This document shows positions 3,031 through 63,620 of a stretch of 64,000 bases of DNA, one piece after another. The position numbers and the translations under genes were made by a program. The stretch's first letter is position 1. Every line of letters begins with the position of its first letter. Under the pieces are notes generated by a model. It was not told where the DNA came from, made no database searches, and worked only from the letters and a program-made list of their open reading frames with translations. Origin of the DNA: an uncultured bacterium (lineage in GTDB: Bacteria; Auribacterota; Erginobacteria; Erginobacterales; CAZKCI01); NCBI GenBank assembly GCA_964584165.1, contig CAZOYW010000006.1, positions 36,022 to 100,021 of the forward strand, in the 5' to 3' direction.

Positions 3031-4461
3031 ATGAGAGAAAAATGGGACTGTGTCGTGGTGGGGGCGGGTCCGGCGGGCCTGGTGGCGGCGCGGGAACTCG
3101 CGCGGGCGGGACAGCGGGTCGTGGTGCTAGAACAACGGCAGCATGTGGGGGGATTGGCCCGCACGATCGATTTCCGGGGTTGCCGCTTCGATATCGGCCC
3201 CCACCGCTTTTTCACCAAGTCCCAGGAAGTCGAAAGATTATGGGAAAACGCGTTGGGTCCCGACTACACCCGAGTGGATCGCCTGACCCGGATCCTTTAT
3301 CGGGGCCGCTACTTTTATTATCCGCTGAAGATCCTGAACACCCTGGTCGGCCTCGGCCCCTGGGGATCCATAAAGGCCTTTGGGAGCTACCTGGCGCGCC
3401 CCCGCCGGGGCGGGGACACCTACGAGGACTACATCAGTTCCGCCTTCGGCACGGTGCTCTACGAGACATTCTTCAAGTCCTATTCCGAGAAGATCTGGGG
3501 GATCCCCTGCCGACAGATTTCTCCGGATTTCGCCGTCCAGAGGATCCATGGGCTCTCCTTCTGGACGGCGATAAAAAACGCAATGATCGCCAGCCGGCAG
3601 GGGCTCCCCAGCAAGGTCAAGTCCCTGGTCTCCTCATTTCGGTACCCCCGGCAGGGGAGCGGATCCGCTTATGACCAGCTGGCCGATGGGGTCAGGAAGG
3701 CCGGGGGAGAGATCGCCACCGGATGGAAGGTAACCGACTGGAATATCGACCGAGATTCCCAGCGACTGGAATCGGTCCTCGCCGGACGCGGGCAGGAGAG
3801 AAGGATATTCCCCGGGAACAGTTTCATCTCTACCATTCCGATCAACGAGCTGGTCTTTTCGTTCCACCCCGCTCTCCCCCATCCCGCGATCGAGGCCGCC
3901 CGCGCCCTGCGTTTCCGCGACCACATCTCCGTCAACCTGATCTTCCGCGGCCCGCGGCCTTTTCCCGATCAGTGGCTTTACCTCCATGACCCCGGGCTGT
4001 TCGCCGCCCGCCTGACCAACTACTGCAATTTTAGCCGAGAGATGAGCAGCCAGGAGGGCGTCTATCCCTTGACCATGGAATATTTCTGCTTCAAGGACGA
4101 TCGCTTCTGGGCTGAGGATGACGCCTACCTGATCGCACTAGCCACCGCCGAACTGAAGAAGCGCGTCGTGACCGGCCCGGGTGAAATCGTGGATGCGTTT
4201 GTGGTCCGCGAGCCCGACGCCTATCCGGTCTACTTCCTCAAATACCAGCCCTATCTAAAAACCATCCGAGACCATCTGGCCGGTTTCCGCAACCTGCAGC
4301 TGGCCGGGCGCTCCGGGCTCTACCGGTACAACAACATGGACCATTCGATCCTGACCGGCCTCTACGCCGCCCGCAACGTGTTGGGGGAAGCCCATGACAT
4401 CTGGCAGGTGAATGCCGACGAAATTTATCTGGAGCAAGTCCGCGAACAGGACAGCTACTAG
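3031..4461 (+). CDS. FAD-dependent UDP-galactopyranose-mutase-like flavoenzyme (Glf family-like, 476 aa)
   Basis: N-terminal Rossmann VVVGAGPAGLVAARELARAGQRVVVLEQRQHVGG; internal YETFFKSYSEKIWG and C-terminal GRSGLYRYNNMDHSILTGLYAARN resemble Glf motifs (YxxxxKGYTEKQWG; GRLAEYKYYDMHQVI). Confidence 0.6.
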   Translation: MREKWDCVVVGAGPAGLVAARELARAGQRVVVLEQRQHVGGLARTIDFRGCRFDIGPHRFFTKSQEVERLWENALGPDYTRVDRLTRILYRGRYFYYPLKILNTLVGLGPWGSIKAFGSYLARPRRGGDTYEDYISSAFGTVLYETFFKSYSEKIWGIPCRQISPDFAVQRIHGLSFWTAIKNAMIASRQGLPSKVKSLVSSFRYPRQGSGSAYDQLADGVRKAGGEIATGWKVTDWNIDRDSQRLESVLAGRGQERRIFPGNSFISTIPINELVFSFHPALPHPAIEAARALRFRDHISVNLIFRGPRPFPDQWLYLHDPGLFAARLTNYCNFSREMSSQEGVYPLTMEYFCFKDDRFWAEDDAYLIALATAELKKRVVTGPGEIVDAFVVREPDAYPVYFLKYQPYLKTIRDHLAGFRNLQLAGRSGLYRYNNMDHSILTGLYAARNVLGEAHDIWQVNADEIYLEQVREQDSY

Positions 4462-4463
4462 CC

Positions 4464-5978
4464 ATGGGCCCCCCCCGCTTCGTTTCCCTGCTTCGCCGTC
4501 TCCCCCGCCGGTCCGTCTACTGGGCGCTGCTGCTAGCCGTGGCCGCCTACGTGGGTTTCGTGGTCTCGGACTACGATCGCTGCTGGATGTGCGTCGAGGT
4601 CTGGGAGCAGCACATCCCCAATGCGGTGAAAACGGGGCCACGGCTGGTAGCTGCCGATTTTTTGCGGGGATTCGAGAACTCCCCCTATGTCATTCTCACC
4701 GGCGAATTGCGCCTCTCCTTCGTCTCCAACCTCCTCCAGCTGCTCAACGTCAAGTTCCGTCTCTGGCTGTTCCAGCACCTGCCGATCCATCCCAGCCTCT
4801 CCTTAACCTGGGTGCTGGTGGCACTGGTCTCGCCGCTGCTCGCATACCAGCTAGCCAAGGAGCTCTCCGATGCATCGGGAGCCTGGACGACGGTGCTGCT
4901 CTATTGCCTTACCACCGGCTTCCTTTCCGGGCTGACCTACTTTATGAAGCCGAGCAAATACCTGACCAATGTCTTCGCCCTTCTCTGCTTTTATCTCGCC
5001 GCCCGCCTGGTCCGGGTCTCCACCGGCGCACCCTCGTGGGGGCGGCGGCAGTGGATTCTCCTCGCCGCGCTGCTCGGGAGTATTTTTCTGTCCTTCTTCA
5101 GCGACGAGGCCACCTGGTTCGTCTACCTGTGTCTCCCGATCATGTTTCCCGCCCTCTTCTCCCGGCGGGGGAAACGAGGCTTGATCTGGGGGCTCTATTT
5201 ATCGCTGGCGCTCTTCTTCGCCCTGACCGCCGTCTATCTGGCGCCGATCCTGGTCCGGCGTTTCGGGGGGGAGGAGATCAACTTCCTCTCGACGCTGCGA
5301 ACCTATCAGGGGCTGAGAAAGGCCAGCCCCTGGGAGACCTTCCGGTTCCGCTATCTCATCGTCAACACCGTCAACCTCTTGCGCAGCCAGTTTCTGACCG
5401 GGATCCGGGCCCTGGATTACCTGTGGTTCCCGCTCGCCGGCTACCTCGTCTGGTTGGCGGCGCTGATGCCCCCCCCTCGGCGGCGTCTGGCCGGACGGAT
5501 CGTCCTGACCATTGTCCTGTTCATCGTCTTTCAATCCTTTCTCCAGGCGCAGCATCCCGGGGTCCCCAGCCGGATCCTCAACTTCGCGTATTACTACGGA
5601 GTCCTCTTCTCCCTGCTCGCCGCCCTCCTCCTGGGGCTGCTCCTCTCCGGCTCCCCGCCCCGGCCCCTGCGGGCCGTCAACACCGCTGTTCTGGTGCTGT
5701 TGATGGTCGTCTTCGCCGTCAATTTCCTCCGCATCCGTCCGGGCTACGAGACCTGGAACGATCCGGAAGGCCTGGACCGACGCCGGGTCGACCGGGGCAT
5801 GGTGATAACCTGCTGGCGCTACCGCGAGCGGCTGGACGAGCTGGAGAAGGACCACCCCGAGATCGCCCGGTGGCTGGAGGGGGAGACCTGGCTGAAAACG
5901 GAGTTGAGATACATACCCCGGCGTCTCCCCGCTCCGGGGGCCGGGGAGACAGGCGCCCCCGGAGAAGGAACCAAGTGA
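4464..5978 (+). CDS. Polytopic integral membrane protein, putative GT-C-type partner of the downstream GtrB-like GT2 (504 aa)
   Basis: About 12 predicted TM helices; start ATG 3 nt after the upstream stop; its stop overlaps the next start (GTGA). Confidence 0.6.
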   Translation: MGPPRFVSLLRRLPRRSVYWALLLAVAAYVGFVVSDYDRCWMCVEVWEQHIPNAVKTGPRLVAADFLRGFENSPYVILTGELRLSFVSNLLQLLNVKFRLWLFQHLPIHPSLSLTWVLVALVSPLLAYQLAKELSDASGAWTTVLLYCLTTGFLSGLTYFMKPSKYLTNVFALLCFYLAARLVRVSTGAPSWGRRQWILLAALLGSIFLSFFSDEATWFVYLCLPIMFPALFSRRGKRGLIWGLYLSLALFFALTAVYLAPILVRRFGGEEINFLSTLRTYQGLRKASPWETFRFRYLIVNTVNLLRSQFLTGIRALDYLWFPLAGYLVWLAALMPPPRRRLAGRIVLTIVLFIVFQSFLQAQHPGVPSRILNFAYYYGVLFSLLAALLLGLLLSGSPPRPLRAVNTAVLVLLMVVFAVNFLRIRPGYETWNDPEGLDRRRVDRGMVITCWRYRERLDELEKDHPEIARWLEGETWLKTELRYIPRRLPAPGAGETGAPGEGTK

Positions 5979-7021
5979 AATCACGCGACCAGGGGGGGGG
6001 CGGAACCAGGGCAGCCGCCGGCCGCCCCCTTTTCTCGATCGTCATCCCCGTTTACAACGCGGCCGAGACGCTCCCGGAGTGCCTGGCGAGCATCTACGCC
6101 TCCACCTTCGCCGATTTCGAGGTGATCGTCGTCGATGACGCCTCGAGCGACGGATCGGCCGCCGTCGCCCGTTCCTCCCCAGCCGCCCTCGTGAGCCTCC
6201 CCGTTAACCAGGGCCCCTCGCTGGCCCGAAACGCCGGAGCCGAGCGGGCGCGGGGCCGCTTCCTGCTCTTCACCGATGCCGATTGCCTCTTCGAGAAGGA
6301 CCTCCTGGACCGGGCCCGCCGCCGGATCGAGGAGGAGGGGGCGGCCCTGTTCGGGGGCACCTACGACCCCCGTTCCGCCGAAGGAAACTTTTACGGCGAC
6401 TTCCAGGCCCTCTACGATTTCTACCACGAGACGAAAGATCCCTGCGCTAACTACCTGGCCGCGCACCTGCTGGTGATCGAAATGGACCTCTTCCGTCGCG
6501 TGGGGGGATTCCACCGGGGGGAGTTCGTCGGCCGGGACGCCGGCTGCGAGGACCTTGACCTGAGCTATCGGCTCAAGCGCCTGGGGTGCCGACTCTCCGT
6601 CTATCCGGAGCTTAGGGTGAAGCACTACTTCGGGTTCGGCCTCTTTTCCTCCCTGCGGAATGCCGCCAAAAAGAGCTACCTCTGGGCCCAGTTCCTCCTG
6701 GCGGAGAAGCTGCTGTTTTCCGACGCCGGCGTCGGATCCACCGAGCTGAAGGCGAACGCGGCCCTGGCGCTCCTCCTCCTCTTCGGCGCGGGGGCGGGCC
6801 TGGCCGGGCGGGCCGGGGGGTGGGCGGCGGCGGCCGGGCTGTTCGTTCTCATGCTCGCGATCAACCGGCGGTTCCTTTTGTTTGCCCTGAGGCAACGGGG
6901 GGCGCTTTTCGCCCTTCAGACGGCCCTCTACCTCCTAGTCCCCTACGCCCTGAGCGTGGGGGCGGGGGGATTCCTTCTCCTCTGCCAGGTCCCCTTCCGG
7001 CGGAGGCTTTGGAGAAAGTAG
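5975..7021 (+). CDS. GT2 glycosyltransferase with C-terminal TM helices (GtrB/polyprenyl-phosphate sugar synthase-like)
   Basis: LFSIVIPVYNAAETLPECLASIYASTFADFEVIVVDDASSDGS GT-A motif; DxD-like FTDADC; two C-terminal TM helices; GTG start overlapping the upstream TGA. The 869-aa ORF 4412-7021 is a read-through artefact. Confidence 0.8.
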   Translation: MKSRDQGGGGTRAAAGRPLFSIVIPVYNAAETLPECLASIYASTFADFEVIVVDDASSDGSAAVARSSPAALVSLPVNQGPSLARNAGAERARGRFLLFTDADCLFEKDLLDRARRRIEEEGAALFGGTYDPRSAEGNFYGDFQALYDFYHETKDPCANYLAAHLLVIEMDLFRRVGGFHRGEFVGRDAGCEDLDLSYRLKRLGCRLSVYPELRVKHYFGFGLFSSLRNAAKKSYLWAQFLLAEKLLFSDAGVGSTELKANAALALLLLFGAGAGLAGRAGGWAAAAGLFVLMLAINRRFLLFALRQRGALFALQTALYLLVPYALSVGAGGFLLLCQVPFRRRLWRK

Positions 7022-7028
7022 GCGGGCC

Positions 7029-8165
7029 ATGATGTACAGCCCCTTGCGCTTCCTGCCCCGGATCCTGCGGAAGGGGCGAGCGCCATTGCATCTCACCTAT
7101 TTCATCACCTCCCGCTGCAACTCCCGCTGCGGCTTCTGCTTCTACCGGAAAGAGGACCAAGCACCGGGGGTCGAGCTCGGCGCCGGCGAGGCGGAGCGGA
7201 TCGCCCGCGCCTATCCGGGGAACCTCCTCTGGCTCCTCCTCTCCGGCGGGGAGCCCTTCCTCCACCCGGAGATCTCCGCGATCTGCCGGGCCTTTTACCT
7301 CCACACCCGGCCTACCTTCATCGTCATCCCCACCAACTGCCTCCAGCCACGGGTGATCGAAGCAACGGTGGACCGGATCGCCCGGGAGTGTCCGCGCTCG
7401 CAGGTGGTGATCAAGGCCTCGCTCGACGGCTGGGGAGCAGACCATGACCGCCTCCGTGGCGTGGAAGGGAACTTCGAACTGTTTCGGGAGACCGTGGAAC
7501 GGGTCGGGGCGCTAAAGGTCGGGCGGCGGAACCTCTCCCTGGGCGTCAACACGGTCATCCTTCCCCAAAACCTAGATCTCCTCTCCGACCTGCGCCGGGA
7601 GGTCAGGAAATTGCCGCGCGTGGACTACCACAATTTCTCACTGGTAAGGGGCTCTGCGGCAACGGAGGAGTTGAAGGAGATCGATCCGGAGAGCTACCGG
7701 CGCCTGGGCGGGGATCTGGAAGCCGAGGCGCGGAGGGGAGAAGGCGGCAAGGGGAGCTTTTTCGGGGCCCAGCTGAAGGCCGCCCAGGATATCCGGCAGC
7801 GGGAGCTGGTGTACCGGGTGCTGGCGACGGGGAAGCGGCAGATCCCCTGTTACGCCGGCCGCCTGAACCTGGTCCTGAACGAAACGGGCGACATCTATCC
7901 CTGCGAGATGCTCCCCTGGAAGCTCGGCAACGCCAGGGAGGAAGGCTACGACCTCGGCAAAATCCTCTCCGGCCCCCGGACAGCCGAGTGCCTGAGAGCG
8001 ATCGCGGAGGGGAACGCGGTCTGCGACCGCTGCACCAACGAGTGCTACTTCATCACCAACATACTGTTCAACCCGCGCCAGGCCGCCGCCGCCCTGGGCC
8101 TCGCCGCCCGGATCCTCATCGGCGGAGCGGCGCGCGGAGCAAGGCCGCGGACTCGGCAGAGTTGA
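7029..8165 (+). CDS. Radical SAM/SPASM-domain enzyme, anSME-like (378 aa)
   Basis: CNSRCGFCFY CxxxCxxC cluster near the N-terminus; C-terminal Cys-rich SPASM region (GDIYPCEML...CDRCTNECYF). Confidence 0.85.
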   Translation: MMYSPLRFLPRILRKGRAPLHLTYFITSRCNSRCGFCFYRKEDQAPGVELGAGEAERIARAYPGNLLWLLLSGGEPFLHPEISAICRAFYLHTRPTFIVIPTNCLQPRVIEATVDRIARECPRSQVVIKASLDGWGADHDRLRGVEGNFELFRETVERVGALKVGRRNLSLGVNTVILPQNLDLLSDLRREVRKLPRVDYHNFSLVRGSAATEELKEIDPESYRRLGGDLEAEARRGEGGKGSFFGAQLKAAQDIRQRELVYRVLATGKRQIPCYAGRLNLVLNETGDIYPCEMLPWKLGNAREEGYDLGKILSGPRTAECLRAIAEGNAVCDRCTNECYFITNILFNPRQAAAALGLAARILIGGAARGARPRTRQS

Positions 8166-8230
8166 AATCGGGGGGCAGTAAGGCTATATTGTTGAAGTTC
8201 GCAGTGGCGGAGACGCGCCGGACAGCTCCC

Positions 8231-15224: not shown

Positions 15225-15248
15225 GGGTTCAGGGTTCAGGGTTCAGGG
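15225..15248. repeat. Tandem heptamer (GGGTTCA)x3 spanning the stop codon of the YfhO gene
   Basis: gggttcagggttcagggttcagggg read directly; it encodes the C-terminal ...LNPEP* on the - strand. Confidence 0.5.
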
Positions 15249-17517: not shown

Positions 17518-17612
17518 GGTCTGCGATCGGTCACGGCGGTTTTTAACCGCGAATTGACGCGAATCTCCGCGAATATATCGGACAACCGATCACTTCTTCT
17601 ATTTGCCGGTTG

Positions 17613-17682
17613 CCTGTGGGAGCGACATTCTTGTCGCGAGCCACGCCCTATGGGATCGGGGCAGGAATGCCCCTCCCACAGG
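17613..17682. repeat. REP-like palindromic intergenic element (CCTGTGGGAGCGACATTCTTGTCGCGAG...GGGGCAGGAATGCCCCTCCCACAGG)
   Basis: 70-bp imperfect palindrome with terminal inverted repeats CCTGTGGGAG/CTCCCACAGG; a second copy lies at 48599-48710. Confidence 0.6.
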
Positions 17683-35971: not shown

Positions 35972-36034
35972 CATAACGCAAGGCGGGCCGACGCCCGCCC
36001 GGACATTATGCCACAACCACAACCGCTCCACCAA

Positions 36035-49920: not shown

Positions 49921-49950
49921 GAAAAACGGCGGTTTTCACGAATAATCCGG
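49908..49950. promoter_or_regulatory. AT-rich palindromic operator-like motif CCGGATTATTCACGAAAAACGGCGGTTTTCACGAATAATCCGG
   Basis: Inverted repeat CCGGATTATTC/GAATAATCCGG flanking two direct TTCACGAA repeats; sits at the 5' end of the RGP-like operon; the same outer motif recurs at 63700-63743. Confidence 0.55.
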
Positions 49951-57052: not shown

Positions 57053-57128
57053 GGCGGAGGCGGCCGGGCGCGGCTGCCGGGGATTGTAGCACAACCCTCC
57101 GCCGCCTGCCGAGGGGATGCTGCCCGCT

Positions 57129-58517
57129 TTAGGTCCGGGGGGAGAAGAGGGAGCGGACCAGGTCCGGCCGGCGCAGGAGCGCCCGCCAGGCCATCGGGTC
57201 CTTGAGCTTCCTCGCCCAGTAGGACGGGCGGCGGTAGAAGGCGGCGAAGGCGCGGCGGAGCCAGGATTCCAGGTCGGGGACGAGGTAGGGGAGGCGGTCG
57301 GAACGGAGGCCCAGCGTGTATTGGCGCCAGTAGTCCGGGTCGATCAGCCCCTCCCGGACCGCGTCCTCGTGGAGGAGGGTGCCGGGGAGCGGGACCGCGG
57401 GGTAGAACATCACGTAGTCGGGTGCGAGCGAGCGGGCGAGGCGGATCGTCGCCGCCATCGTCTCGGGCGTCTCCCCGGCGTAGCCCAGGATGAAGTAGGC
57501 GCCGGTCTTCAGGCCGGCCGCCCGGGCCCCGGCGAAGGCGGCCTTTGCCTGGGCGATTGTGATCCCCTTCTCCATCCGGTCGAGGATCGCCTGGGAGCCC
57601 GACTCCACTCCGAACTTGAGCTGCCGGCAGCCCGACTCCCTCATCAGCTTCATCAAGTCGGCCGAAACGATGTCCACGCGGGTCGCGCCCTGCCAGCGGA
57701 GGCGCAGCCCCCGGCGCCGGATCGAGCGGCAGAGGGACTCGATCTGGGCGGCGTTGACGGTGAGCATGTCGTTGCAGAAGATGATCTCCCTCACCCCCTC
57801 GTCGACGGCGAGGCGCTCCATCTCCTCCGCGACCAGCTCGGGCGAGCGGTGCCTCACCCGCCGCTGCTCCGGCGGGCGGTGGCAGAAGCCGCAGCGGAAA
57901 GGGCAGCCCCGGGTGGAGATCATCGTCGCCATCGGGGAACGGGCGTCGGCCCGGCCGTACCGGCGGGGGGGGATGAGGTCGCGGGCGGGGAGCGGGATCC
58001 CGTCCAGGTCCTCGACCACGGCGGAGGGGTTGCAGACCGTCTCCCCCCCCCTCCTCCAGACCAGTCCGGGGACCCCGGCTAAGTCGCCCCCTCCCCGCAG
58101 GGCGTCGAGGAGGACGAGCAGCGCCTCCTCGCCCTCCCCGGCGACGGCGAAGTCGAAACAGCGGTGGGAGAGGGTCTCGCGGGGGAGGAGCGAGACGTGG
58201 GGGCCGCCAACCACCACCCGGGGGGCGCATTCCCGCGCCTGCGAAGCGGCCTCCACCGCCCCCTGGATCTCCGGCGTGGTGGCGGTGATCCCCACGAGGT
58301 CGGGGCGCCAGCGCTCGAGGGCGCGCCGGAGGTCGTCCGCCCCCCACCCTTCCCGGACGCAGTCGAAGAGGGCGGCCTCGTGGCCGGTGGCCCGCAGCGC
58401 CCCTCCCAGGTAGGCGAGACCGAGCGGCGGCCAGACGCCCATCCGGTCGACCACCGAGGGGAGCTCCCGGGTGTTGACCATCGCCCGGTCGTGATAGCGG
58501 ACGAGCGCCACCCTCAT
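57129..58517 (-). CDS. B12-binding (class B) radical SAM enzyme (463 aa)
   Basis: MRVALVRYHDRAMVN...; TRGCPFRCGFCH. ATG 58517 forms an ATGA overlap with the upstream stop; the 851-aa ORF extension is junk. Confidence 0.85.
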   Translation of the reverse strand: MRVALVRYHDRAMVNTRELPSVVDRMGVWPPLGLAYLGGALRATGHEAALFDCVREGWGADDLRRALERWRPDLVGITATTPEIQGAVEAASQARECAPRVVVGGPHVSLLPRETLSHRCFDFAVAGEGEEALLVLLDALRGGGDLAGVPGLVWRRGGETVCNPSAVVEDLDGIPLPARDLIPPRRYGRADARSPMATMISTRGCPFRCGFCHRPPEQRRVRHRSPELVAEEMERLAVDEGVREIIFCNDMLTVNAAQIESLCRSIRRRGLRLRWQGATRVDIVSADLMKLMRESGCRQLKFGVESGSQAILDRMEKGITIAQAKAAFAGARAAGLKTGAYFILGYAGETPETMAATIRLARSLAPDYVMFYPAVPLPGTLLHEDAVREGLIDPDYWRQYTLGLRSDRLPYLVPDLESWLRRAFAAFYRRPSYWARKLKDPMAWRALLRRPDLVRSLFSPRT

Positions 58518-59944
58518 CGCGTCCCCTCCCCCGTCTCGAAGATCTCCCGGAGCACCCGCCCGGCCGAGCGGGCGGGCGGGCGGAGGCCGAGGATGGCCGC
58601 CGCCGTCGCCCCGATGTCCATGATCGTCCCGGAGGCTTCGACCCGGGCGCCCCGCCGGATCATCGGCCCGCGGGCGATGAAGGGGACGATCCGCTCGGAG
58701 GGGGCGAGGAGGTAGGAGTGGTCGATCCCGGCGATCCCGTGGTCGGAGCAGACGATCACCGCCGTCTCCGCCTCCAGCCCCTCTCGGCGGAGCCAGCCGA
58801 AGAAGCGGCCGAGGCGCTCGTCGGTCCGCTCCAGCGACTCCCGGTAGAGCGCGGAAGCGGAGCCATAGGCGTGGCCGACGAAATCCGCCTCGCTGATGTC
58901 GAAGACGAAGAGCCGGACCTCGGGGCGGCCGAGCAGGTCGCGCTGGAGCTCCGCCAGCGCGAGCTCGTCGATCCGCCAGCAGGAGACGGCGGCGATCGGG
59001 ACGACCTTCACCTCCCACTCCGGCTTGGAGAAGTGGCGCACGTGCATCGATCCGTAGAGGACCGTCGGCGTGAGGTCGGGCAGCCCCTCGACCCGGATCC
59101 GCTGGCCGAGGTTGTTGTTGAGGACGCCGTGGACCCGGGGCGGCGCGCCGGTGAGGATGCTGGCGAAGGCCGGGTTGGTCAGGGCCCGGTAGACCGTCCG
59201 GAGCCCCGGGAGGATCTCCGTCCCCTCCCCCGCGAAGGACCGGAGCGACGGTCGGGCGATCCGGTCGAAGACGTCCCGCCGAACGCCGTCGATGTTGAGG
59301 ATGATCAGGCGGCGGGCGGGGGCGAGAGCGGGGAGGGCGGGGCCGGACGCCGGGTCCGAGAGGATGCGGGGGAGGAGCTTGCGCACCGCCGCCGCCCAGA
59401 GAAGGAGGAGAGGGAAGGGAGCGGCGGCCGTTAAACTCCCCCGGGCGGCGGCGAGAAGAGAGAGCGTCAGGAAGCCGGAAAAGGCGACCGACATCGAGAG
59501 GCTGACCGTGGTCGGGGCGACCGTCCAGCAGGAGTTCCAGAGCATCCGGAAGGGGACCGAGCCGTCGCGGCTGACCAGGCCGTTGGGGATGCCCATGAAG
59601 AGGAGCTGGACCGCGGCGAAGACCGCGATCTGGAGGAGGAGCGCGGCGGCGAGCGTCCCCGGCGCCAGGACGCCCATGAGCCACCAGTAAGCGGCCGCCG
59701 CCGGGACGGCCAGGGAGAGCCAGGGGTGAAAGTCGCCGATCCGGCAGATCGCGTAGACCGCCCCCGCCGCCGGGAGGGCCCAGAGGGTCGCGGCCGACCA
59801 GGGAGGGGAGAGGAGGAGGAAGACCCCGATCCCGGCGATCGCGTAGTAGGTGTCGATGCTGTTGAAGAAGTAGAGGACGCGGACCGCGACGTCCTCCACC
59901 CCGGCGAGGAGGTCGGAGAGGGCCGAGCGCAGGGAGCGGTTCAT
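58514..59944 (-). CDS. Membrane-anchored alkaline-phosphatase-superfamily enzyme, NPP/type I phosphodiesterase-like (476 aa)
   Basis: Six N-terminal TM helices; ILNIDGVRRDVF, LTGAPPRVHGV, VCSDHGI. ATG 59944 forms an ATGA overlap with the upstream stop. Confidence 0.75.
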   Translation of the reverse strand: MNRSLRSALSDLLAGVEDVAVRVLYFFNSIDTYYAIAGIGVFLLLSPPWSAATLWALPAAGAVYAICRIGDFHPWLSLAVPAAAAYWWLMGVLAPGTLAAALLLQIAVFAAVQLLFMGIPNGLVSRDGSVPFRMLWNSCWTVAPTTVSLSMSVAFSGFLTLSLLAAARGSLTAAAPFPLLLLWAAAVRKLLPRILSDPASGPALPALAPARRLIILNIDGVRRDVFDRIARPSLRSFAGEGTEILPGLRTVYRALTNPAFASILTGAPPRVHGVLNNNLGQRIRVEGLPDLTPTVLYGSMHVRHFSKPEWEVKVVPIAAVSCWRIDELALAELQRDLLGRPEVRLFVFDISEADFVGHAYGSASALYRESLERTDERLGRFFGWLRREGLEAETAVIVCSDHGIAGIDHSYLLAPSERIVPFIARGPMIRRGARVEASGTIMDIGATAAAILGLRPPARSAGRVLREIFETGEGTR

Positions 59945-60996
59945 CTTCGGTGGCGGAGGAGGTTGCCCGGCGGAAAACTCAAGCGGGTCTCGAGGTAGCA
60001 GACGTAGCAGGTGGTCCGGCAGCGGGCGCAACCGGCCAGGGAAGCGAGCGTCCGCCGGTATTCCGGAGTCGCCATGACTCCGGGCCAGTCCCGGAGCCGG
60101 AAGGGGGACCGCCAGCCCATCCCCTCGAGGCAGGGGAAGACCGTCCCGTCCGGCCAGACCTCCAGGTGATGATAGCCGAAAAGGCAGGGCCGGGAAGCGA
60201 AAACGTCCGTCCGGCCCCGGACGAGGAACTCGGCGGCGGCCCGGAGGAAACGGTCGGAGTTGATCACCCGCCGCGAGCGGGCGAGCTCCCGGAAGACCGC
60301 CTCGATCCGCGCCGGGTCCGGCGGGGGGGCGGACCGCTCCCCGGCGGCGCCGTCGAAGGCCGGGTGGGAGTTGCGCGGCTGGATCTTCATCTTCACCCCC
60401 GCCTCCCCGGCCAGGCGGAGGACGCTTAAGGCCTCCTCCGGCCGGTCGGGCATGACCACGGCGTTCAGGACCACCGCCGTCGCCGGGGCGGCGGCGCGGA
60501 GCGCCTCCACCGCCTGGAGCGCCCCGACGTGCGCGCCCGGCTTTCCCCGGATGGCGTCGTGGAACGCGGGCGAGCCGTCGATGCTGATCGAGACCTCGTC
60601 CACGCCGGCGGCCCGGAGGGAGGCCGCCCGCGAACGGTCGAGAAGGGAGCCGTTGGTCACCAGGTGCGTGTAGAGGACGCCCCCGGCGCGCGCCGCCGCG
60701 AGCGCCTCCTCGGCGTAGGGGAGGAGGAGCGGCTCGCCGCCGCTGATGCTGAAGTAGGCGCAGGAGAGGTTCCCCAGCTCCCGGGCCAACCTCAGGATCT
60801 CCTCGCGCCCGAGGGTCGGGGACCCCGGGTGCTTCCTGATCTCGCAGAAGGAGCAGGCAAAATTGCAGCGGGTGGTGATGTAGCAGCCGCAGGCCATCGG
60901 ACGGGGGCGGGAGCGCAGGTAGGACGCGTACCAGCGGGCGGTCCGAAAGAGGAGCGGAAGGGCCCGGCGGGGCTTGAGGAGGAGGGGATGCCTCAC
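59941..60996 (-). CDS. Radical SAM/SPASM-domain enzyme, anSME-like paralog (351 aa)
   Basis: CNFACSFCEIRK; SIDGSPAFHDAIRGKPGAH; C-terminal CLFGYHHLEVWPDGTVFPC...CARCRTTCYVCY. Confidence 0.85.
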   Translation of the reverse strand: MRHPLLLKPRRALPLLFRTARWYASYLRSRPRPMACGCYITTRCNFACSFCEIRKHPGSPTLGREEILRLARELGNLSCAYFSISGGEPLLLPYAEEALAAARAGGVLYTHLVTNGSLLDRSRAASLRAAGVDEVSISIDGSPAFHDAIRGKPGAHVGALQAVEALRAAAPATAVVLNAVVMPDRPEEALSVLRLAGEAGVKMKIQPRNSHPAFDGAAGERSAPPPDPARIEAVFRELARSRRVINSDRFLRAAAEFLVRGRTDVFASRPCLFGYHHLEVWPDGTVFPCLEGMGWRSPFRLRDWPGVMATPEYRRTLASLAGCARCRTTCYVCYLETRLSFPPGNLLRHRR

Positions 60997-62147
60997 CGCT
61001 TCACCTCCGGGCGGGCGGCAAGGAGGCGGAGGGCGGCCGCGACCACCTCCTCGGTCCCGATCGCCTGGAGGCAGCGGTTGTCCCGGCAGTTGGCCATCTT
61101 GTAGCGGTAGACGTTGAGGCAGGGGCTGCAGTGGCGGCGGGAGTAGAGGACCTCGTGGCGCTCGGGCGGGAGCGGGCCGTAGAGGCGGGGGGTTTCCGGC
61201 CCGAAAAGGGCGACGCAGGGCGTCCCCAGCGTGGCGGCGAGATGCATCGGGCCGCTGTCGTTCCCGATGTAGAGGGCGGCCCGGCGGAGAAGTCCGGCGA
61301 GCTCGGCGAGGGTGAGCGTCCCGACCAGGGGGATCAGGCGCTCCTCCTTCCGGAAGGCCTCGACCAGGGGAGCCATGTACTCGCGGTCGGCGGGGCCGCC
61401 GATGGCGGCGACGGCGAGGTCGGTCCGGTCCAGGAGCCCCCGGATCGCGGCGATGTACCGGTCCCGGGGCCAGCGGCGCTGGAGGGAGAGGTCGCCCGCG
61501 TTGGGGTTGACCACGGCGAAGGGGCGGGAGAGGAAGGGGAAGCGGGCCGCGTCCAGGGCCGCGGGGCCGGTGGCCACCCGGGGCTCGCTCGCCTCCGCGC
61601 AGCCCAGGAAGGCGGCGATCCGGCCAAAGCAGTCCCGAGCATGGAGGGAGTGGTCGAAGACGACCCCGACGTCGTAGAGGGCGTCCCGCTCCGGCTTCAG
61701 GGAGGTGAAGCCGATCGAGGGTGAGCCGGACGAGAAGGCGACCAGGGCGGTAAAGTTGGAGGAGAACTCGAAGTCGATCACCAGGTCATAGCGCGCGGCG
61801 CGGACCGCGGCGAAGAGCTTGAGGACGGCGAGGGGGAAGGACGGCCGGCGGAGATCGACCGTGACCACCCGGTCGATCTCCGGGATCAGGCGGCAGGCCT
61901 CCGCCGTCTCCGGAAGGGTGAGGAAATCGATCCAGGCCCGGGGCCAGCGCCCCTTGATGGCCCGGAGGGTGGGCGAGATCAGAAGGATCGATCCGATCCC
62001 CCAGCATTTGACGCAGAGGATGCGGGGCGACGAACCCGGGGCCGGGGCCACGTTTCCCCTCCGCCGGCGACGAAAAAGGCCGGCCAGGCGGCCCAGGAAG
62101 AAGCCGGCCGAGGCGTCAACGCGGCGGAGGAAATTGATCGAGTACAT
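60993..62147 (-). CDS. GT9-family glycosyltransferase (ADP-heptose:LPS heptosyltransferase-like)
   Basis: ILCVKCWGIGSILLISPTLRAIKGRWP...; GNDSGPMHLAATLGTPCVALFGP; ATGA overlap with the upstream start. Confidence 0.8.
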   Translation of the reverse strand: MYSINFLRRVDASAGFFLGRLAGLFRRRRRGNVAPAPGSSPRILCVKCWGIGSILLISPTLRAIKGRWPRAWIDFLTLPETAEACRLIPEIDRVVTVDLRRPSFPLAVLKLFAAVRAARYDLVIDFEFSSNFTALVAFSSGSPSIGFTSLKPERDALYDVGVVFDHSLHARDCFGRIAAFLGCAEASEPRVATGPAALDAARFPFLSRPFAVVNPNAGDLSLQRRWPRDRYIAAIRGLLDRTDLAVAAIGGPADREYMAPLVEAFRKEERLIPLVGTLTLAELAGLLRRAALYIGNDSGPMHLAATLGTPCVALFGPETPRLYGPLPPERHEVLYSRRHCSPCLNVYRYKMANCRDNRCLQAIGTEEVVAAALRLLAARPEVKR

Positions 62148-62201
62148 TTTATTCCATTATACCCCATCCGCGGCCGTCCCCAGCCAGGGGGGCCGCCGAC
62201 C

Positions 62202-63620
62202 TCAGCGGGACCGCCGGAAGCGCCAGAAGTAGCGGATCGCCTCGCCATAGCCCATCCGTTTCCAGTTCTTGAACCAGAAAAACAATCCCGCGTAGCGGAC
62301 CCCCCGCAAAGGGAAAGGCAGGCGAGCGAGCCAGCGGAAGCGGCGGTAAAAACCCGGAAAGCGGACGAAGAAGTAGAAGAGGTATTGGACGTTCTCGATC
62401 GTCCGGCGGTCGGGAATGGCGCAGACCGAGCGGGTGAAGTAGTTCCCCGGGAGGTCCTCGGCTTTGAAATCGGGGGGGATGCACCCCGCCCGGACCGCCG
62501 CGTCGAAGATCCGGGTGTCGGGGTAGGGGAAGAGGAAGCTGGAGAAGGGGTGGTCCACCTTGAGCTCGTGGTAGAGCTCGACCGTGCGGAAGGCGTCGGC
62601 GACGGTCTCGCCGGGGAAGACGAACATGGAGGGGGCGTAGACCTCGATCCCCCGCTCCTTGACCAGGCCGATCTGGCGGCGGAACTCGGCGTCGGTGAAG
62701 GCCTTCTTGTTGAAGACTCCCCGGCGCTTTTCCTCGCTCCCGGTCTCGATCCCGAACTCGACGCTGGCGCAGCCGGTATCCCGGAGGAGGTCGGCGACCT
62801 CGGCGTCGATCGTCCCCGGCCCGGCCGAGCAGATGTAGGGGAGGCCGATCTCCTTCCGATAGCGGGGGAGGAAGCTTTTGAGCCAGTCCCGGTCGAGGAG
62901 GAAGAGGTCGTCGATGAAGAAAACCGTCTCCGCTTTCCGATAGCGGTCCCGGAGCCGGATGAGCTCCCCGAGTGCGAACTCGGGCGACTGGCGGCGCTGC
63001 ACCGGCCCCAGCCCCTTGAAAAGCCGGTTGAGCGTCTCGTTGACGCAGAAGGAGCAGGGGAAGGGGCAGCCCCGGGAGGAGAGGTACTGGAGGAGGGTGT
63101 CGTCGGCGAGCCGCGGGTAGCGGCGGAAGTAGACCTCGCGGTCCTCCGGGTAGGCGTCGAGGTCGGCGATGAGCGGGCGCAAGGGGTTCCGGTAGATCTT
63201 CCCCTGGCGGCGGACATGGAGGTTCCGGATACCAGTGATCACTGCTTTGTTCGCCTTCCCCAGCGCCGCCAGGAGTTCGACCACCGCCTCCTCCCCCTCC
63301 CCCACGCAGATCGCGTCGAGCTCCTTCGTCTCCTCGAGGAGCGCGGGGTGGATGGTGGGGTGGATGCCCCCGGCGAGGAGGAAGGCCGCCGGCGCCGCCC
63401 GCCGGATCGCGGGGACGACCGCCCGGAACCAGTTGAGGTCGCTGGAGCAGAGCGTGATCCCGACCGCGTCGGGTCCGAAGGCGGCGATCTCCCGCGGGAG
63501 GTCCTTCTCGGCGTTCTCCATCAGGACCAGGCACGTGTGACCGGCCCGGGCGGAGGCGGCGGCGAGGGAGGCGATCCCGGGGAGGGCGAAGACCTGGCGC
63601 TGGACGAAGAGGATCTTCAT
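62202..63620 (-). CDS. B12-binding (class B) radical SAM enzyme
   Basis: MKILFVQRQVFALPGIAS...; SRGCPFPCSFCVNE. An alternative TTG start at 63641 is possible. Confidence 0.85.
   Translation of the reverse strand: MKILFVQRQVFALPGIASLAAASARAGHTCLVLMENAEKDLPREIAAFGPDAVGITLCSSDLNWFRAVVPAIRRAAPAAFLLAGGIHPTIHPALLEETKELDAICVGEGEEAVVELLAALGKANKAVITGIRNLHVRRQGKIYRNPLRPLIADLDAYPEDREVYFRRYPRLADDTLLQYLSSRGCPFPCSFCVNETLNRLFKGLGPVQRRQSPEFALGELIRLRDRYRKAETVFFIDDLFLLDRDWLKSFLPRYRKEIGLPYICSAGPGTIDAEVADLLRDTGCASVEFGIETGSEEKRRGVFNKKAFTDAEFRRQIGLVKERGIEVYAPSMFVFPGETVADAFRTVELYHELKVDHPFSSFLFPYPDTRIFDAAVRAGCIPPDFKAEDLPGNYFTRSVCAIPDRRTIENVQYLFYFFVRFPGFYRRFRWLARLPFPLRGVRYAGLFFWFKNWKRMGYGEAIRYFWRFRRSR

Follow-up and report, generated by a model that had tools for sequence, protein, structure and literature searches.

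The 64-kb window – the whole stretch of DNA that was analyzed – comes from an uncultured high-GC bacterium and holds 39 genes by GC3 frame-plot gene calling, 38 of them at positions 3031-63620, with ~96% of its length coding (Table 1). Domains were assigned with Pfam and NCBIfam. From g7 to g39 (10188-63620), 33 genes in a row lie on the minus strand – an arrangement with a chance of ~0.5^32 if orientation were random – and no housekeeping gene interrupts the run among the genes called. An earlier note on this DNA had described a co-directional island with gaps of 0-60 nt. The island stands, but its spacing is less uniform: 24 of the 32 gaps are at most 60 nt (including 11 start/stop overlaps; median gap 26 nt), whereas eight span 63-234 nt and the corrected starts of g29 and g30 open two more of ~240-280 nt.

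All 38 genes of 3031-63620 fit one glycan/envelope theme, as had been proposed, but the cluster does not stop at these limits. On the left g1 is also a member, and past 64000 the cluster, more than 60 kb in all, runs on with three DegT aminotransferases, an epimerase/dehydratase, a further radical SAM and an 821-aa protein. The same gene set is found in seven contigs of other assemblies (L095/L096, L097, L099, L100, L101, L102 and L103), with protein identities of 37-72% and, in the five measured, a GC content of 52-66%.

Table 1. Genes and other elements of the window, with the matches on which each assignment is based.
Feature	Position	Strand	Evidence or remark
g1, 851-aa polytopic, family A (YfhO-like GT-C)	179..2734	-	Weak C-terminal Pfam YfhO, 23.7 bits; PgfM1/M2 matches
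g2, FAD flavoprotein, UDP-galactopyranose-mutase-like	3031..4461	+	Pfam Amino_oxidase + NAD_binding_8
g3, 504-aa polytopic, short family C relative	4464..5978	+	GT-C core without C-terminal domain
g4, GT2 with C-terminal TM helices (residues 258-340)	5975..7021	+	Pfam Glycos_transf_2, 107 bits
g5, radical SAM + SPASM	7029..8165	+	Pfam; CxxxCxxC motif, C-terminal cysteine cluster
g6, exported sulfatase-fold (AP superfamily), Thr at nucleophile position	8189..10144	+	Pfam Sulfatase, 153 bits
g7, 1151 aa, Ser at nucleophile position	10188..13643	-	Pfam TPR + Sulfatase (residues 706-1018)
g8, B12-binding radical SAM	13707..15188	-	Pfam B12-binding + Radical_SAM
g9, 762-aa family A (YfhO)	15229..17517	-	Pfam YfhO, 29.7 bits
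g10, radical SAM + SPASM	17715..18767	-	Pfam; L095 orthologue, 55% identity
g11, GT2, AglJ / dolichyl-phosphate-hexose-transferase type	18891..19652	-	NCBIfam AglJ, 147 bits, below equivalog cutoff
Promoter-like site	19687-19659		At g11
g12, 828-aa family A	19887..22373	-	Weak Pfam YfhO, E 0.0018
g13, 498-aa polytopic membrane protein	22470..23966	-	Faint LIC_10190 + PTPS_related matches only
g14, sulfatase-fold lipoprotein, Thr at nucleophile position	23963..25381	-	Pfam Sulfatase, 135 bits
g15, RmlC-like sugar-nucleotide 3,5-epimerase	25389..25910	-	Pfam dTDP_sugar_isom, 147 bits
g16 + g17, split transketolase-like ThDP enzyme (C- / N-terminal halves)	26129..27898	-	Pfam
g18, B12-binding radical SAM	27948..29447	-	Pfam
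g19, GT2, PgfS/ArnC/GtrB-like polyprenyl-phosphate sugar synthase type	29452..30438	-	Two C-terminal TM helices
g20, PMT_2/PMT-type GT-C + C-terminal ankyrin repeats	30468..32951	-	Pfam, all above threshold
g21, family B (divergent PMT_2-like GT-C)	33002..35230	-	Weak PMT_2, E 0.0023
g22, SAM-dependent methyltransferase	35327..36034	-	Pfam Methyltransf_25/11
g23, 819-aa family A	36035..38494	-	Paralogue of g1, g12, g9
g24, family C: GT-C fold + C-terminal beta-sandwich (CBM-like) domain	38467..40566	-	
g25, SAM-dependent methyltransferase	40590..41369	-	Pfam
g26, family C (GT-C)	41366..43504	-	30% identity to g24 over 707 aa
g27, 613-aa membrane protein, GT-C fold	43548..45389	-	
g28, family B, divergent PMT_2-like GT-C, conserved C-terminal domain	45386..47623	-	
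g29, GT2, dolichyl-phosphate-hexose-transferase type	47620..48480	-	NCBIfam DPhHxTase + AglJ
REP-like repeats	48598-48656		Within open stretch ahead of g29 (ORF open to 48738)
g30, GT75 NDP-pyranose mutase homologue (MtdL/RGP family)	48757..49866	-	Pfam RGP, 57.6 bits, cutoff 23.8
Second copy, same palindrome arms	49908-49950		Upstream of g30
g31, radical SAM, SPASM-like C-terminal cysteine cluster	50110..51153	-	Pfam Radical_SAM; 33% identity to g5
g32, 743-aa polytopic, weak C-terminal discoidin (F5/8 type C)-like domain	51211..53442	-	F5_F8_type_C, E 0.005
g33, family B	53439..55586	-	42% identity to g28 over 709 aa
g34 + g35, two B12-binding radical SAM	55538..58517	-	Pfam
g36, TM-anchored AP-superfamily (phosphodiesterase/sulfatase-fold)	58514..59944	-	Pfam Phosphodiest 92.6 bits, Sulfatase, Metalloenzyme
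g37, radical SAM, SPASM-like cysteine cluster	59941..60996	-	Pfam Radical_SAM, 90 bits
g38, GT9 (heptosyltransferase-like GT-B)	60993..62147	-	Pfam Glyco_transf_9, 97 bits
g39, B12-binding radical SAM, first gene of minus-strand run	62202..63620	-	Pfam
AT-rich perfect palindrome CCGGATTATTCATGGCGATC-TTTC-GATCGCCATGAATAATCCGG	63700..63743	.	Upstream of g39

Thirteen large polytopic membrane proteins are encoded inside 3031-63620, with g1 just outside, and most have no Pfam hit. The name GT-C/YfhO given to them earlier holds for the GT-C part, with family B linked to PMT_2 and g3 to family C, but the Pfam YfhO cutoff (28.5 bits) is reached by g9 alone. Profile and pairwise comparisons show at least 12 predicted membrane glycosyltransferases with, or related to, the GT-C fold, which fall into five sequence families. 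Within family A, g23 shares 32% identity with g1 over 816 aa and 43% with g12 across the C-terminal 307 aa, and the family aligns with PMT_2-like relatives in hhalign (76%, E 2e-5). For the family B protein g28, hhalign gave 100% between A1 and A4; g21 and g28 are 26% identical over 759 aa, a g28 profile search of 1.84 billion representatives returned 11 matches below 1e-30 and 95 below 1e-10, and 23 of 60 remote matches of the family also match Pfam PMT_2. The short protein g3 aligns with family C over 387 columns (hhalign probability 95.3%, E 2e-8). Pfam matches g20 to PMT_2 (36.9), PMT (28.2) and Ank families, a GT-C/ankyrin fusion also kept in L099. Several GT-C proteins end in beta-sandwich (CBM-like) or discoidin-like domains; hhalign gave no fold assignment for g13 or the membrane part of g32. 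A shared 197-nt DNA repeat lies in g33.

Four GT2 glycosyltransferases (g4, g11, g19 and g29) were confirmed by Pfam and NCBIfam, and their matches show three or four to be of the predicted polyprenyl-phosphate-sugar-synthase type. The GtrB/DPM1-like character claimed for them fits g19, which matches PgfS (190 bits, full-length) and ArnC (127 bits), both below the equivalog cutoffs, and also g11 and g29, which resemble AglJ and Dol-P-hexose transferases, but g4 has generic GT2 matches only in NCBIfam. The start of g29 is probably the ATG at 48480; in the long ORF, Pfam GT2 begins at residue 117. The GT9 protein g38 scores 107 bits against NCBIfam heptosyltransferase III, where the cutoff is 170.

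We observed two putative mutases among the sugar-nucleotide enzymes. All best PDB matches of g2 are UGMs (E 8e-16); it aligns full-length to the eukaryote-type UGM, does not match the Pfam GLF domain and has homologues in the related clusters L071 (43%), L097 and L100. A full-length phmmer alignment relates g30 to MtdL (7xpr; E 1.6e-50), with the DDD motif, PRGxP, R289 and H292 kept and the Mn-binding His287 of MtdL replaced by Gln. Together, the GT75 homologue and the UGM-like flavoprotein point to the likely use of furanose donors. The split ThDP enzyme comprises g16 (Transket_pyr and Transketolase_C) and g17 (Transketolase_N) with a 0-nt gap between them, and orthologues of the methyltransferase g25 (45-52% identity) adjoin family C genes in L095, L100 and L101. 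Because equivalog-level NCBIfam scores all fall far below their cutoffs, no donor sugar can be named.

The cluster encodes nine radical-SAM enzymes. Five are B12-binding by Pfam (g8, g18, g34, g35 and g39), bearing out the claim that this family recurs. Among the other four, SPASM exceeds the Pfam threshold in g5 and g10, and g31 and g37 have the C-terminal CxxCxxxC cysteine pattern only. Their description as anSME-like is not upheld: no anSME model is found among the NCBIfam matches listed (23 for g5), and the sulfatase-fold proteins lack C/S-x-P-x-R. Enzymes of RiPP, tetrapyrrole, hopanoid and lipid pathways are among the nearest named NCBIfam families; g18, for example, matches BchE and HpnJ best, far below cutoffs. 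Among solved relatives, g8 comes closest to AprD4, a sugar diol-dehydratase (E 6e-15), with TokK and CysS next. The g39 protein has an exact match on 10 contigs. Nine oxygen-sensitive radical-SAM enzymes, along with nearby ferredoxin genes, make an anaerobic host plausible.

Four AP/sulfatase-fold proteins (g6, g7, g14 and g36) are exported or membrane-anchored, to judge by a signal, lipobox or TM segment. Their AP-superfamily membership, noted earlier, is confirmed, but a sulfatase function is not: the C/S-x-P-x-R formylglycine motif is absent from g6, g7 and g14 (nucleophile position T, S and T, respectively), and in all four proteins this position is Thr or Ser rather than formylglycine. 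The aligned motif is TRTSL in g6, which has an N-terminal hydrophobic signal, and TRPAM replaces CxPxR in g14, whose lipobox is LASC and which is related in the PDB to sulfatases and phosphonate monoester hydrolases. In g7, whose motif is SAPSY, 4-5 TM helices are combined with a cryptic AP/sulfatase-like domain, with TPR repeats and with another domain of the sulfatase fold. The N-terminal part of g7 matches Sulfatase below threshold (E 2e-4), and in the Chloroflexota locus L032 a homologue of its N-terminal half (34% identity) adjoins a GT2 and a YfhO-like gene. N-terminal TM helices are present in g36, whose L099 orthologue (39% identity) follows GT9 and radical-SAM genes.

These families had been read as a quintet recurring five times. 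We found the complete ordered quintet once (g11 GT2, g10 SPASM, g9 YfhO-like, g8 B12, g7 AP), with four to five copies of each family in the cluster; the partial stretches are g2-g6 without B12, g21-g12 without SPASM, g39-g31 without GT2, and g30-g22 without radical SAM and AP. The neighborhood comparison, set beforehand as a refutation test, did not refute the island, as the seven contigs share both families and collinear blocks. In L097, where the g34 orthologue is 72% identical, the block reads g35-B12-g34-famB-g27-famC-famC-famA. L095 keeps g10-g9-g8 as SPASM, GT-C (45% identity to g9) and B12 genes with overlapping stops and starts; L100 and L101 have B12-GT2-SPASM-YfhO-like, and L099 has GT9, a radical-SAM gene and the g37 and g36 orthologues in a row. 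Orthologues of g23 occur in L095, L097 and L099 (39-47% identity) and of g26 in L095, L097, L100 and L101 (36-49%). At 80 distant YfhO-like loci from other phyla, GT2 is a frequent neighbor (32/80), with B12 radical SAM at four (five at a looser cutoff), SPASM at three and AP-fold at two; this rarity suggests that the radical-SAM association is lineage-restricted.

We favor, at a probability of roughly 0.6, a cluster for multi-module, polyprenyl-phosphate-sugar-dependent assembly and decoration of an envelope glycan or glycoconjugate outside the cytoplasmic membrane, with radical-SAM tailoring. Of the multiplexed periplasmic glycosylation machine proposed earlier, this retains the sugar-lipid dependence and the modules but not the five-fold iteration. 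NDP-sugars, some turned to the furanose form, would be transferred to polyprenyl phosphate by the GT2 enzymes, and cytoplasmic radical-SAM, B12 and SAM enzymes would tailor the sugars or lipid-linked sugars, possibly by C-methylation, deoxygenation or epimerization. We purely infer sugar substrates for the nine radical-SAM enzymes. A flippase would carry the lipid-linked donors across the membrane, where the GT-C array, each member with its own specificity, would extend the growing glycan; AP-fold enzymes may then add or remove phospho-substituents (compare LtaS, GacH/SccH and EptA). Each conserved cassette of GT2, SPASM radical SAM, YfhO-like GT-C and B12 radical SAM, with or without an AP-fold gene, would supply and install one modified sugar.

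The radical-SAM enzymes might instead modify an isoprenoid or membrane lipid by methylation, cyclization or C-C coupling, as for hopanoids, ladderanes or tetraethers, with GT2 and GT-C enzymes glycosylating it to an unusual glycolipid or lipoglycan anchor. Best NCBIfam matches of the B12 enzymes include rSAM_ladder_B12 ('lipid biosynthesis B12-binding/radical SAM protein'), HpnJ and HpnR; g31 weakly matches the tetraether synthase Tes, g5 and g10 weakly match HpnH, and g2 is a member of the amine-oxidase/phytoene-desaturase-like superfamily of flavoproteins. We regard such a product as unlikely, as these lipid-enzyme scores lie 3- to 10-fold under the family cutoffs, the nearest solved relatives of g2 and g8 are UGMs and a sugar dehydratase, and no squalene/hopene cyclase, prenyl synthase, fatty-acid or polyketide gene occurs in the window +/-10 kb.

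Glycosylation of a secreted or surface protein, or of a ribosomal peptide, is quite improbable too; radical-SAM and B12 enzymes would epimerize, C-methylate or crosslink this acceptor (as in proteusins and sactipeptides), and PMT-, YfhO- and PgfM-like GT-C enzymes would O-glycosylate it. YfhO-type PgfM1/M2 and PMTs glycosylate proteins, and both are among the GT-C matches. RiPP enzymes (ApyD, rSAM_ocin_1) are the best NCBIfam matches of several B12 enzymes and peptide maturases (mycofactocin, PqqE, SCIFF-type) those of the SPASM proteins, but all score far below cutoffs. Ankyrin (g20) and TPR (g7) repeats could serve protein interaction; the CBM-like beta-sandwich C-termini on GT-C proteins and the many sugar-nucleotide enzymes suggest a glycan acceptor instead. 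No precursor-like small ORF was found among the 39 genes (ORFs of at least 80-100 aa searched). About 7 kb past the window, a 44-aa ORF does precede a radical-SAM gene, and on the left side a C39 peptidase is encoded at a distance of ~8 kb, but neither is beside the conserved cassettes in other genomes.

Independent co-directional operons – LPS core, sulfatases with maturases, secondary metabolism – could also have come together by chance. The 8-10 wider gaps (63-280 nt), the promoter-like sites and the paired palindrome indicate several transcription units, and gene order varies between genomes. The palindrome pattern occurs at two sites only, where 0.01 matches are expected by chance; the copies, with RNA fold energies of -48.8 kcal/mol (z -12) and -24.2 kcal/mol (z -4), may act as operators or 5' hairpins and would mark two transcription units. 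Chance is nevertheless very improbable, given that the families occur together on seven contigs, including tight mixed cassettes (L095), and that radical-SAM, GT2, GT-C and AP genes are interleaved, not segregated. Degradation of sulfated glycans by sulfatases that anaerobic sulfatase-maturing enzymes activate merits almost no credence: the Pfam Sulfatase scores of g6, g7 and g14 (130-153 bits), carbohydrate sulfatases as PDB relatives and adjoining SPASM genes (g5 by g6) favor it, but it is largely refuted by the absent formylglycine motif, with its essential Arg missing, and by the lack of an anSME model among the NCBIfam matches listed, and Pfam finds no glycoside hydrolase, SusC/D or sugar transporter in the window.

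The favored glycan-assembly reading has known counterparts. An Und-P-sugar synthase, a flippase and a GT-C enzyme form a system of the same logic (PMC11127046). The cluster shares the polyprenyl-phosphate-sugar synthase and GT-C logic of such three-component glycosylation, but in the window we recognized no flippase of the GtrA, MATE, Wzx or ABC type, nor any priming phosphoglycosyltransferase, polymerase, ligase or LCP enzyme. The S. mutans SCC system combines two GT-A/GT-C pairs with the GroP transferase SccH (PMC11754754). Like the mycobacterial GT-C array, the cluster carries a GT-C array of its own.

Gene content assigned by Pfam and NCBIfam places no housekeeping gene among the 38 genes between 3031 and 63620. 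This stretch encodes 13 polytopic membrane proteins of 500–830 aa; four GT2 proteins, one GT9 and one GT75; five B12-binding and four other radical-SAM enzymes; and one flavoprotein resembling UDP-galactopyranose mutase (UGM), four alkaline-phosphatase superfamily (AP)/sulfatase-fold proteins, two SAM methyltransferases, an RmlC-like epimerase and a split transketolase – families that account for all 38 genes. An earlier note on this DNA had described an envelope-glycan cluster in which a quintet of enzyme types recurs five times. The glycan theme held for every gene, but the five-fold iteration, the gap sizes and the boundaries did not. The best-supported interpretation is a polyprenyl-phosphate-sugar-dependent system for extracytoplasmic glycan assembly and decoration, much as that note had proposed, though without its sulfatase/anSME component or its repeated modules.

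Because GC content is ~70%, raw ORF lists for the window are full of spurious frames. Genes were called from a GC3 frame plot and inspection of start codons, which gave 39 genes covering ~96% of the sequence. The ~33 consecutive minus-strand genes noticed at first reading were recovered as a single unbroken run, g7–g39. Their reported spacing of 0–60 nt was not: among the 32 gaps, 11 are overlaps (mostly the four nucleotides of ATGA or GTGA) and 24 measure at most 60 nt, but eight span 63–234 nt, and revised starts for g29 and g30 open two more of ~240–280 nt. REP-like repeats, an element that also occurs between g9 and g10, lie within the ~86 codons that open the long form of the g29 ORF, and this suggests that g29 starts at ATG 48480; the upstream GTG start of g30 falls within a palindrome. 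A promoter-like site precedes g11. Given the gap distribution and the two revised starts, the run represents several transcription units and not a single 54-kb operon.

An AT-rich palindrome is present at exactly two sites, before g39 and before g30, where chance alone predicts 0.01 matches. The copy before g39 folds, as RNA, at -48.8 kcal/mol (z -12). The palindrome, which was not found in related loci of other species, could serve two transcription units as a shared operator or 5' hairpin. Separately, a heptamer tandem repeat lies directly upstream of the g10 start, and motifs containing TGATC also stand upstream of several other gene starts, after larger gaps. An Rfam scan of the window returned no riboswitch or other RNA family, and a tRNA-Ser(cga) called by ARAGORN within g24 is probably a false positive of GC-rich sequence. 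GC content falls around the divergent g1/g2 promoter region, where the g1–g2 intergenic region is the longest of the window (296 nt). A ‘genomic island’ in the horizontal-transfer sense was rejected: GC is even except for this dip at 2–6 kb, and the cluster has neither an integrase nor a flanking tRNA.

Coordinates of genes, repeats and neighbouring features (window positions unless another locus record is named)
Feature	Record	Position	Strand	Remark
g1	window	179-2734	-	gene call
g2-g6	window	3031-10144	+	gene calls
g7-g39	window	10188-63620	-	33 genes, run unbroken
REP-like GCCTGTGGGAGCGACAT	window	17612-17683		inverted pair, g9-g10 gap
REP-like GCCTGTGGGAGCGACAT	window	48598-48656		42-nt tandem, 1.9 copies, would-be N-terminus of long g29 ORF
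Palindrome, arms CCGGATTATTC(A/G)TG	window	63700-63743		before g39
Palindrome, arms CCGGATTATTC(A/G)TG	window	49908-49950		before g30
Heptamer tandem AGTGATC	window	18777-18828		7.4 copies, 95% matches, g10-g11 gap
AGTGATC, shorter inverted copy	window	44381-44412		within g27 coding region
tRNA-Ser(cga) call	window	39217-39303	+	within minus-strand coding region of g24
GC dip	window	2001-6000		GC 0.63-0.64 vs ~0.70 elsewhere; g1|g2 promoter region, g2-g3
g7	window	10188-13643		1151 aa
g20	window	30468-32951		PMT_2-type GT-C with ankyrin repeats
g28	window	45386-47623		DNA similarity to g33
g33	window	53439-55586		DNA similarity to g28
x177/x180	window	63819-64000	+	divergent pair, 177 and 180 aa
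x177/x180	L087	8581-9802		same pair
44-aa ORF	L087	2585-2719		~7 kb past window end
PMT_2-ankyrin fusion	L099	20206-22076		as g20
IS element	L101	1118-4200		between two DegT genes

The glycan theme overruns 3031–63620, as g1 is a paralogue of g23. Left of g1 the content changes to small ORFs, an HhH-GPD gene, an LpxD-like gene and ferredoxins. Right of 64000, the source contig carries a divergent pair of small membrane proteins; genes for three DegT aminotransferases and an epimerase/dehydratase are also present there, as are a radical SAM and a protein of 821 aa. The small pair, x177 and x180, lies between the DegT genes and the cluster head; each protein has N-terminal transmembrane (TM) helices and an ~80-aa soluble tail but no Pfam match. 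Homologues occupy the same position in two related loci, L100 and L101 (tblastn, 40–82% identity), and a third, L103, has two unannotated genes of similar size in the same arrangement. These proteins are candidate regulators or a candidate missing flippase. We also observed, among the sugar aminotransferase genes and directly upstream of a 344-aa radical-SAM gene, a 44-aa ORF that may encode a RiPP-like precursor, unless the gene call is spurious.

The HMM annotation proposed at first reading recovered the GT2, B12, radical-SAM and sulfatase-fold families but placed YfhO above threshold in g9 only and gave no anSME model among the matches listed. Just two membrane proteins pass Pfam thresholds: g9 (YfhO) and g20 (PMT_2/PMT plus ankyrin). 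For YfhO (PF09586, cutoff 28.5 bits), g9 scores 29.7, g1 23.7 and g12 17.2, the match spanning only the C-terminal ~70 residues; g23 has no match, and all four are mutual paralogues. All-against-all BLAST grouped the large polytopic proteins into family A (g1, g9, g12 and g23; YfhO-like), family B (g21, g28 and g33; divergent PMT_2-like) and family C (g24 and g26; GT-C with a C-terminal beta-sandwich), leaving g3, g13, g20, g27 and g32 as singles. Searching PDB sequences with profiles of the membrane families gave no match, and the unannotated proteins gave only faint matches when Pfam and NCBIfam were scanned at relaxed thresholds. As direct sequence evidence was thin, we turned to deep profile searches and a structure model.

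When 1.84 billion representatives were searched exhaustively with a family B profile in HMMER, 11 clusters fell below 1e-30 – family B being one of several GT-C families that are almost lineage-restricted – and 95 fell below 1e-10, the latter covering the N-terminal membrane core. Pfam PMT_2 matched 23 of 60 remote relatives. A word-index homology search with g28 found three proteins, and a family B scan of metagenome contigs found the same species only. The predicted g27 model (pLDDT 73.5, pTM 0.77) matched GT-C structures in all of its top 20 hits, including ALG12 (17.9), ArnT (17.8) and Pmt4 (17.6). By hhalign, which is powerless between shallow paralogue profiles and informative only with deeper alignments, g3 aligned with family C (95%, E 2e-8) and family A with a PMT_2-like set (76%).

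Consistent with GT-C superfamily membership, we identified conserved acidic motifs in the first extracytoplasmic loop, which are putatively catalytic. After TM1, family C has a nearly invariant D77-x-E79 and family A a consensus DD; the g27 family consensus is FDEW, and family B carries DxTY..RDGD. Evidence for a GT-C fold thus extends to 12 of the 14 polytopic proteins (g13 and g32 fall outside this set), and the membrane proteins were not assigned to the unrelated transporter families that would have undermined the glycan interpretation. A GT-C-fold transferase acting outside the membrane, as in a three-component system, is represented here. Two further features of these proteins were observed. 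In g20 a PMT_2-type GT-C is fused to C-terminal ankyrin repeats, a fusion also present in L099; the orthologue in L095 (59% identical) aligns only to g20 residues 108–677 and so apparently lacks the repeats. Between g28 and g33, DNA segments of 197, 122 and 105 nt are 71–79% identical, each offset by 7951 nt, and similarity at this constant offset indicates a relatively recent tandem-type duplication inside the cluster.

On the donor side, g19 has two TM helices at its C-terminus, and its full-length alignments score 190 bits for PgfS and 127 bits for ArnC. Both g11 and g29 match AglJ and dolichyl-phosphate-hexose-transferase models in NCBIfam; g4, which carries TM helices at its C-terminus, gives generic GT2 matches. 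Of these, g19, g11 and g29 are putative polyprenyl-phosphate sugar synthases at the family level; since all scores fall below equivalog cutoffs, the enzyme type is supported but no donor sugar can be named. No flippase family of the GtrA/GtcA, MATE or Wzx type was detected by Pfam or NCBIfam in the 39 window genes, and neither x177 nor x180 matched a family; the flippase could be encoded elsewhere. Likewise, no priming enzyme and no ligase was recognised in the window.

Two mutase-like genes escaped the first reading. The product of g30, which lies directly upstream of the GT2 gene g29 and a six-gene GT-C string, matches Pfam RGP (57.6 against a cutoff of 23.8) and MtdL over its full length (E 1.6e-50). 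It keeps the DDD (DxD motif), PRGxP, R289 and H292 of MtdL, with Gln in place of the Mn-binding His287, and on this basis appears to be a clear homologue of GT75 NDP-pyranose mutases (the MtdL/RGP/UAM family). The g2 protein matches Amino_oxidase and NAD_binding_8 but not GLF in Pfam; its top PDB matches are all UGMs (E 1e-15), and it aligns over its full length to eukaryote-type UGM. With g2-like genes recurring in related clusters, the g30 and g2 relationships make furanose donors likely.

We found the CxxxCxxC motif in all nine radical-SAM proteins, and since none has a signal or TM segment they are predicted to be cytoplasmic. Five (g8, g18, g34, g35 and g39) combine this motif with B12-binding and radical-SAM Pfam domains above threshold, a domain content predicting class B (cobalamin-binding) enzymes. 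They are 24–36% identical to one another and reach at most one third of the cutoffs of the BchE, HpnJ, ApyD and ladderane-lipid models. Among solved structures, g8 is closest to AprD4 (E 6e-15), a sugar diol-dehydratase and not a methylase. Among the others, g5 (28.0 bits) and g10 (27.0 bits) exceed the Pfam SPASM cutoff of 21.5 bits; g31 and g37 have no such match but contain CxxCxxxC-type cysteine clusters and are probable SPASM members. For these, generic SPASM enzymes are the nearest families, with every score far below its cutoff.

The adjacency of sulfatase-fold and SPASM genes (g6/g5, and g7 near g10) recalls pairs of sulfatases with their maturases, but this reading was rejected. Although Pfam clearly assigns g6, g7 and g14 to the Sulfatase fold, regular-expression search and alignment revealed no correctly placed C/S-x-P/A-x-R formylglycine motif in any of them; the aligned residues are TRTSL in g6, SAPSY in g7 and TRPAM in g14. 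Nor does an anSME model appear in the complete list of 23 NCBIfam matches for g5 or among the best 25 for g10, g31 and g37. The AP-fold proteins have no equivalog match and match EptA weakly. Both g6 and g14 have Thr at the nucleophile position but are not multi-TM. A lipobox is present in g14 and an N-terminal signal in g6; g36 combines a TM anchor with a Phosphodiest domain. These four proteins may be better compared to the Thr/Ser-nucleophile AP-superfamily transferases and hydrolases of envelope polymers (LtaS, EptA, GacH/SccH; PMC11754754). In addition, g7 appears to join four to five TM helices and a cryptic AP/sulfatase-like domain (sub-threshold Sulfatase match, E 2e-4) to TPR repeats and another sulfatase-fold domain. 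No PDB sequence matched the N-terminal domain of g7, and its N-terminal half is a separate gene adjoining a YfhO-like gene in two Chloroflexota loci, L031 and L032, the latter also with a GT2.

Exact matches to the window proteins were found on many same-species contigs, which come from several samples. A family A scan of species-representative genomes hit neither the source genome nor any close relative; it reached 80 loci in many phyla with distant (~25% identity) YfhO-like genes, whose neighbours included a GT2 at 32, a B12 radical SAM at four (five at a looser cutoff), a SPASM protein at three and an AP-fold protein at two. Exceptions were a Geobacteraceae locus, L071, with the order YfhO-like, B12, GT9, radical SAM, g2 homologue (43%) and B12, and the Chloroflexota loci, which combine a YfhO-like gene, a GT2 and the g7 N-terminal homologue.

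Decisive evidence came through homologues of family C and g27. These led to seven contigs in other assemblies on which the same families sit side by side (L095/L096, L097, L099, L100, L101, L102 and L103), at 37–72% protein identity to the window and 52–66% GC in the five measured, bearing out the proposed conserved co-occurrence. A B12 radical SAM is present on all seven, as are multiple large polytopic proteins; GT2, AP-fold and Pfam SPASM genes are each present in five, and L097, a sixth contig, has a radical SAM that lacks a Pfam SPASM match. All five families lie within 20 kb in three of the seven. Collinear blocks include g35-B12-g34 (72%)-family B-g27-family C-family C-family A in L097 and g10 (55%)-g9 (45%)-g8 (56%), with overlapping stops, in L095. 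L100 and L101 share the order B12-GT2-SPASM-YfhO-like, followed in L101 by a sulfatase-fold gene, and L099 has a GT9, a radical-SAM gene and the g37 and g36 orthologues consecutively. L101 also carries an IS element at the cluster head (a DDE_Tnp_1 transposase flanked by AAA_14 and DUF4143 genes). Given these shared families and collinear blocks, the quintet – GT2, SPASM radical SAM, YfhO-like GT-C, B12 radical SAM and AP/sulfatase-fold gene – is a real conserved cassette, though it is complete only once in the window, as g11–g7, and not five times as first described.

Enzyme families, folds, topology and conserved linkage are matters of observation; the cluster chemistry as a whole is entirely our inference. 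We infer the reaction order, the action of the radical-SAM enzymes on sugars, the addition or trimming of phospho-groups by AP-fold proteins, and a glycan acceptor. Our tentative proposal, to which we assign a probability of about 0.3, is that the conserved cassette performs a three-component glycosylation with a tailored donor, and that the GT-C paralogues jointly build an arabinan-like, furanoside-containing lipoglycan or wall polymer. Radical-SAM enzymes would modify lipid-linked or nucleotide sugars by C-methylation, deoxygenation or epimerisation, these sugars possibly being furanoses from the GT75 and UGM-like mutases. The cognate YfhO-like GT-C would then install the tailored sugar, the AP-fold enzyme being optional in the cassette, and ~12–14 GT-C paralogues could yield a complex furanoside polymer analogous to mycobacterial arabinan. 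The lineage is uncultured and probably anaerobic. If radical-SAM enzymes do tailor lipid-linked sugars, this would amount to novel biochemistry of carbohydrates and would offer new sugar-modifying enzymes, and the four- or five-gene cassette of this biochemically unusual cluster is small enough for heterologous expression.

GT-C enzymes with lipid-linked donors build envelope polymers of great importance, among them N-glycans, O-mannans, arabinogalactan and teichoic-acid decorations, and three-component examples include GtrA/GtrB/GtrV, CsbB/GtcA/YfhO for LTA and PgfS/PgfM1/PgfM2. Their logic comprises a polyprenyl-phosphate-sugar synthase, a flippase and a GT-C, and in GT136 pentofuranose systems an epimerase diversifies the donor (PMC11127046). 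The window resembles these systems in having GT2 synthases (g19, and AglJ/DPM-like g11 and g29) that adjoin GT-C genes, some with C-terminal CBM-like domains, and auxiliary enzymes that may diversify the donor sugar. It differs in the absence of a recognised flippase, in having ~12–14 GT-C genes for three to four synthases instead of one-to-one pairs, and in nine interleaved radical-SAM genes. A full-text search of one literature collection turned up no publication in which radical SAM is tied to YfhO, GT-C or lipid-linked donors – an absence of evidence. The cluster would extend three-component logic to about a dozen GT-C from five families in one locus. As a second extension, it would couple that logic systematically to radical-SAM/cobalamin chemistry and to furanose-forming mutases of two kinds.

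Sugar-tailoring enzymes known from antibiotic biosynthesis include the radical-SAM protein AprD4 and cobalamin radical-SAM sugar C-methylases such as GenK; g8 and g30 resemble AprD4 and MtdL, respectively. The GT75 mutases MtdL and Hyg20 serve sugar tailoring in antibiotic pathways (PMC9937993). Unlike those small-molecule pathways, the window is an envelope-glycan cluster with GT-C, and g30 departs from MtdL at the Mn-binding position.

To our knowledge, large GT-C arrays are rarely described outside mycobacteria. Mycobacterial arabinogalactan and LAM synthesis uses the UGM Glf and a DPA-/PPM-dependent GT-C array (EmbA/B/C, AftA-D and PimE). In contrast, the window proteins have no sequence-level relation to Emb/Aft families in profile searches, DprE1/E2 and a UbiA-type PRPP transferase are absent, and the genes form one co-directional cluster where the mycobacterial genes are dispersed.

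The Streptococcus mutans SCC/group A carbohydrate region combines the GT-A proteins SccN/SccP, the GT-C proteins SccM/SccQ and the GroP transferase SccH/GacH (PMC11754754). Shared with the window are several GT-A/GT-C pairs in one locus, a membrane-anchored sulfatase-fold enzyme – LtaS-like in SCC, where it decorates the glycan outside the membrane – and the lack of an identified flippase. Unlike SCC, the window has four AP-fold proteins (two soluble or lipoproteins, one a double-domain TPR fusion) and added radical-SAM enzymes, and lacks rhamnan backbone machinery. By analogy with these systems, the cluster would best be described as three-component and multiplexed SCC-type logic scaled to a mycobacterial-like GT-C array, with radical-SAM/B12/SAM tailoring and furanose mutases added.
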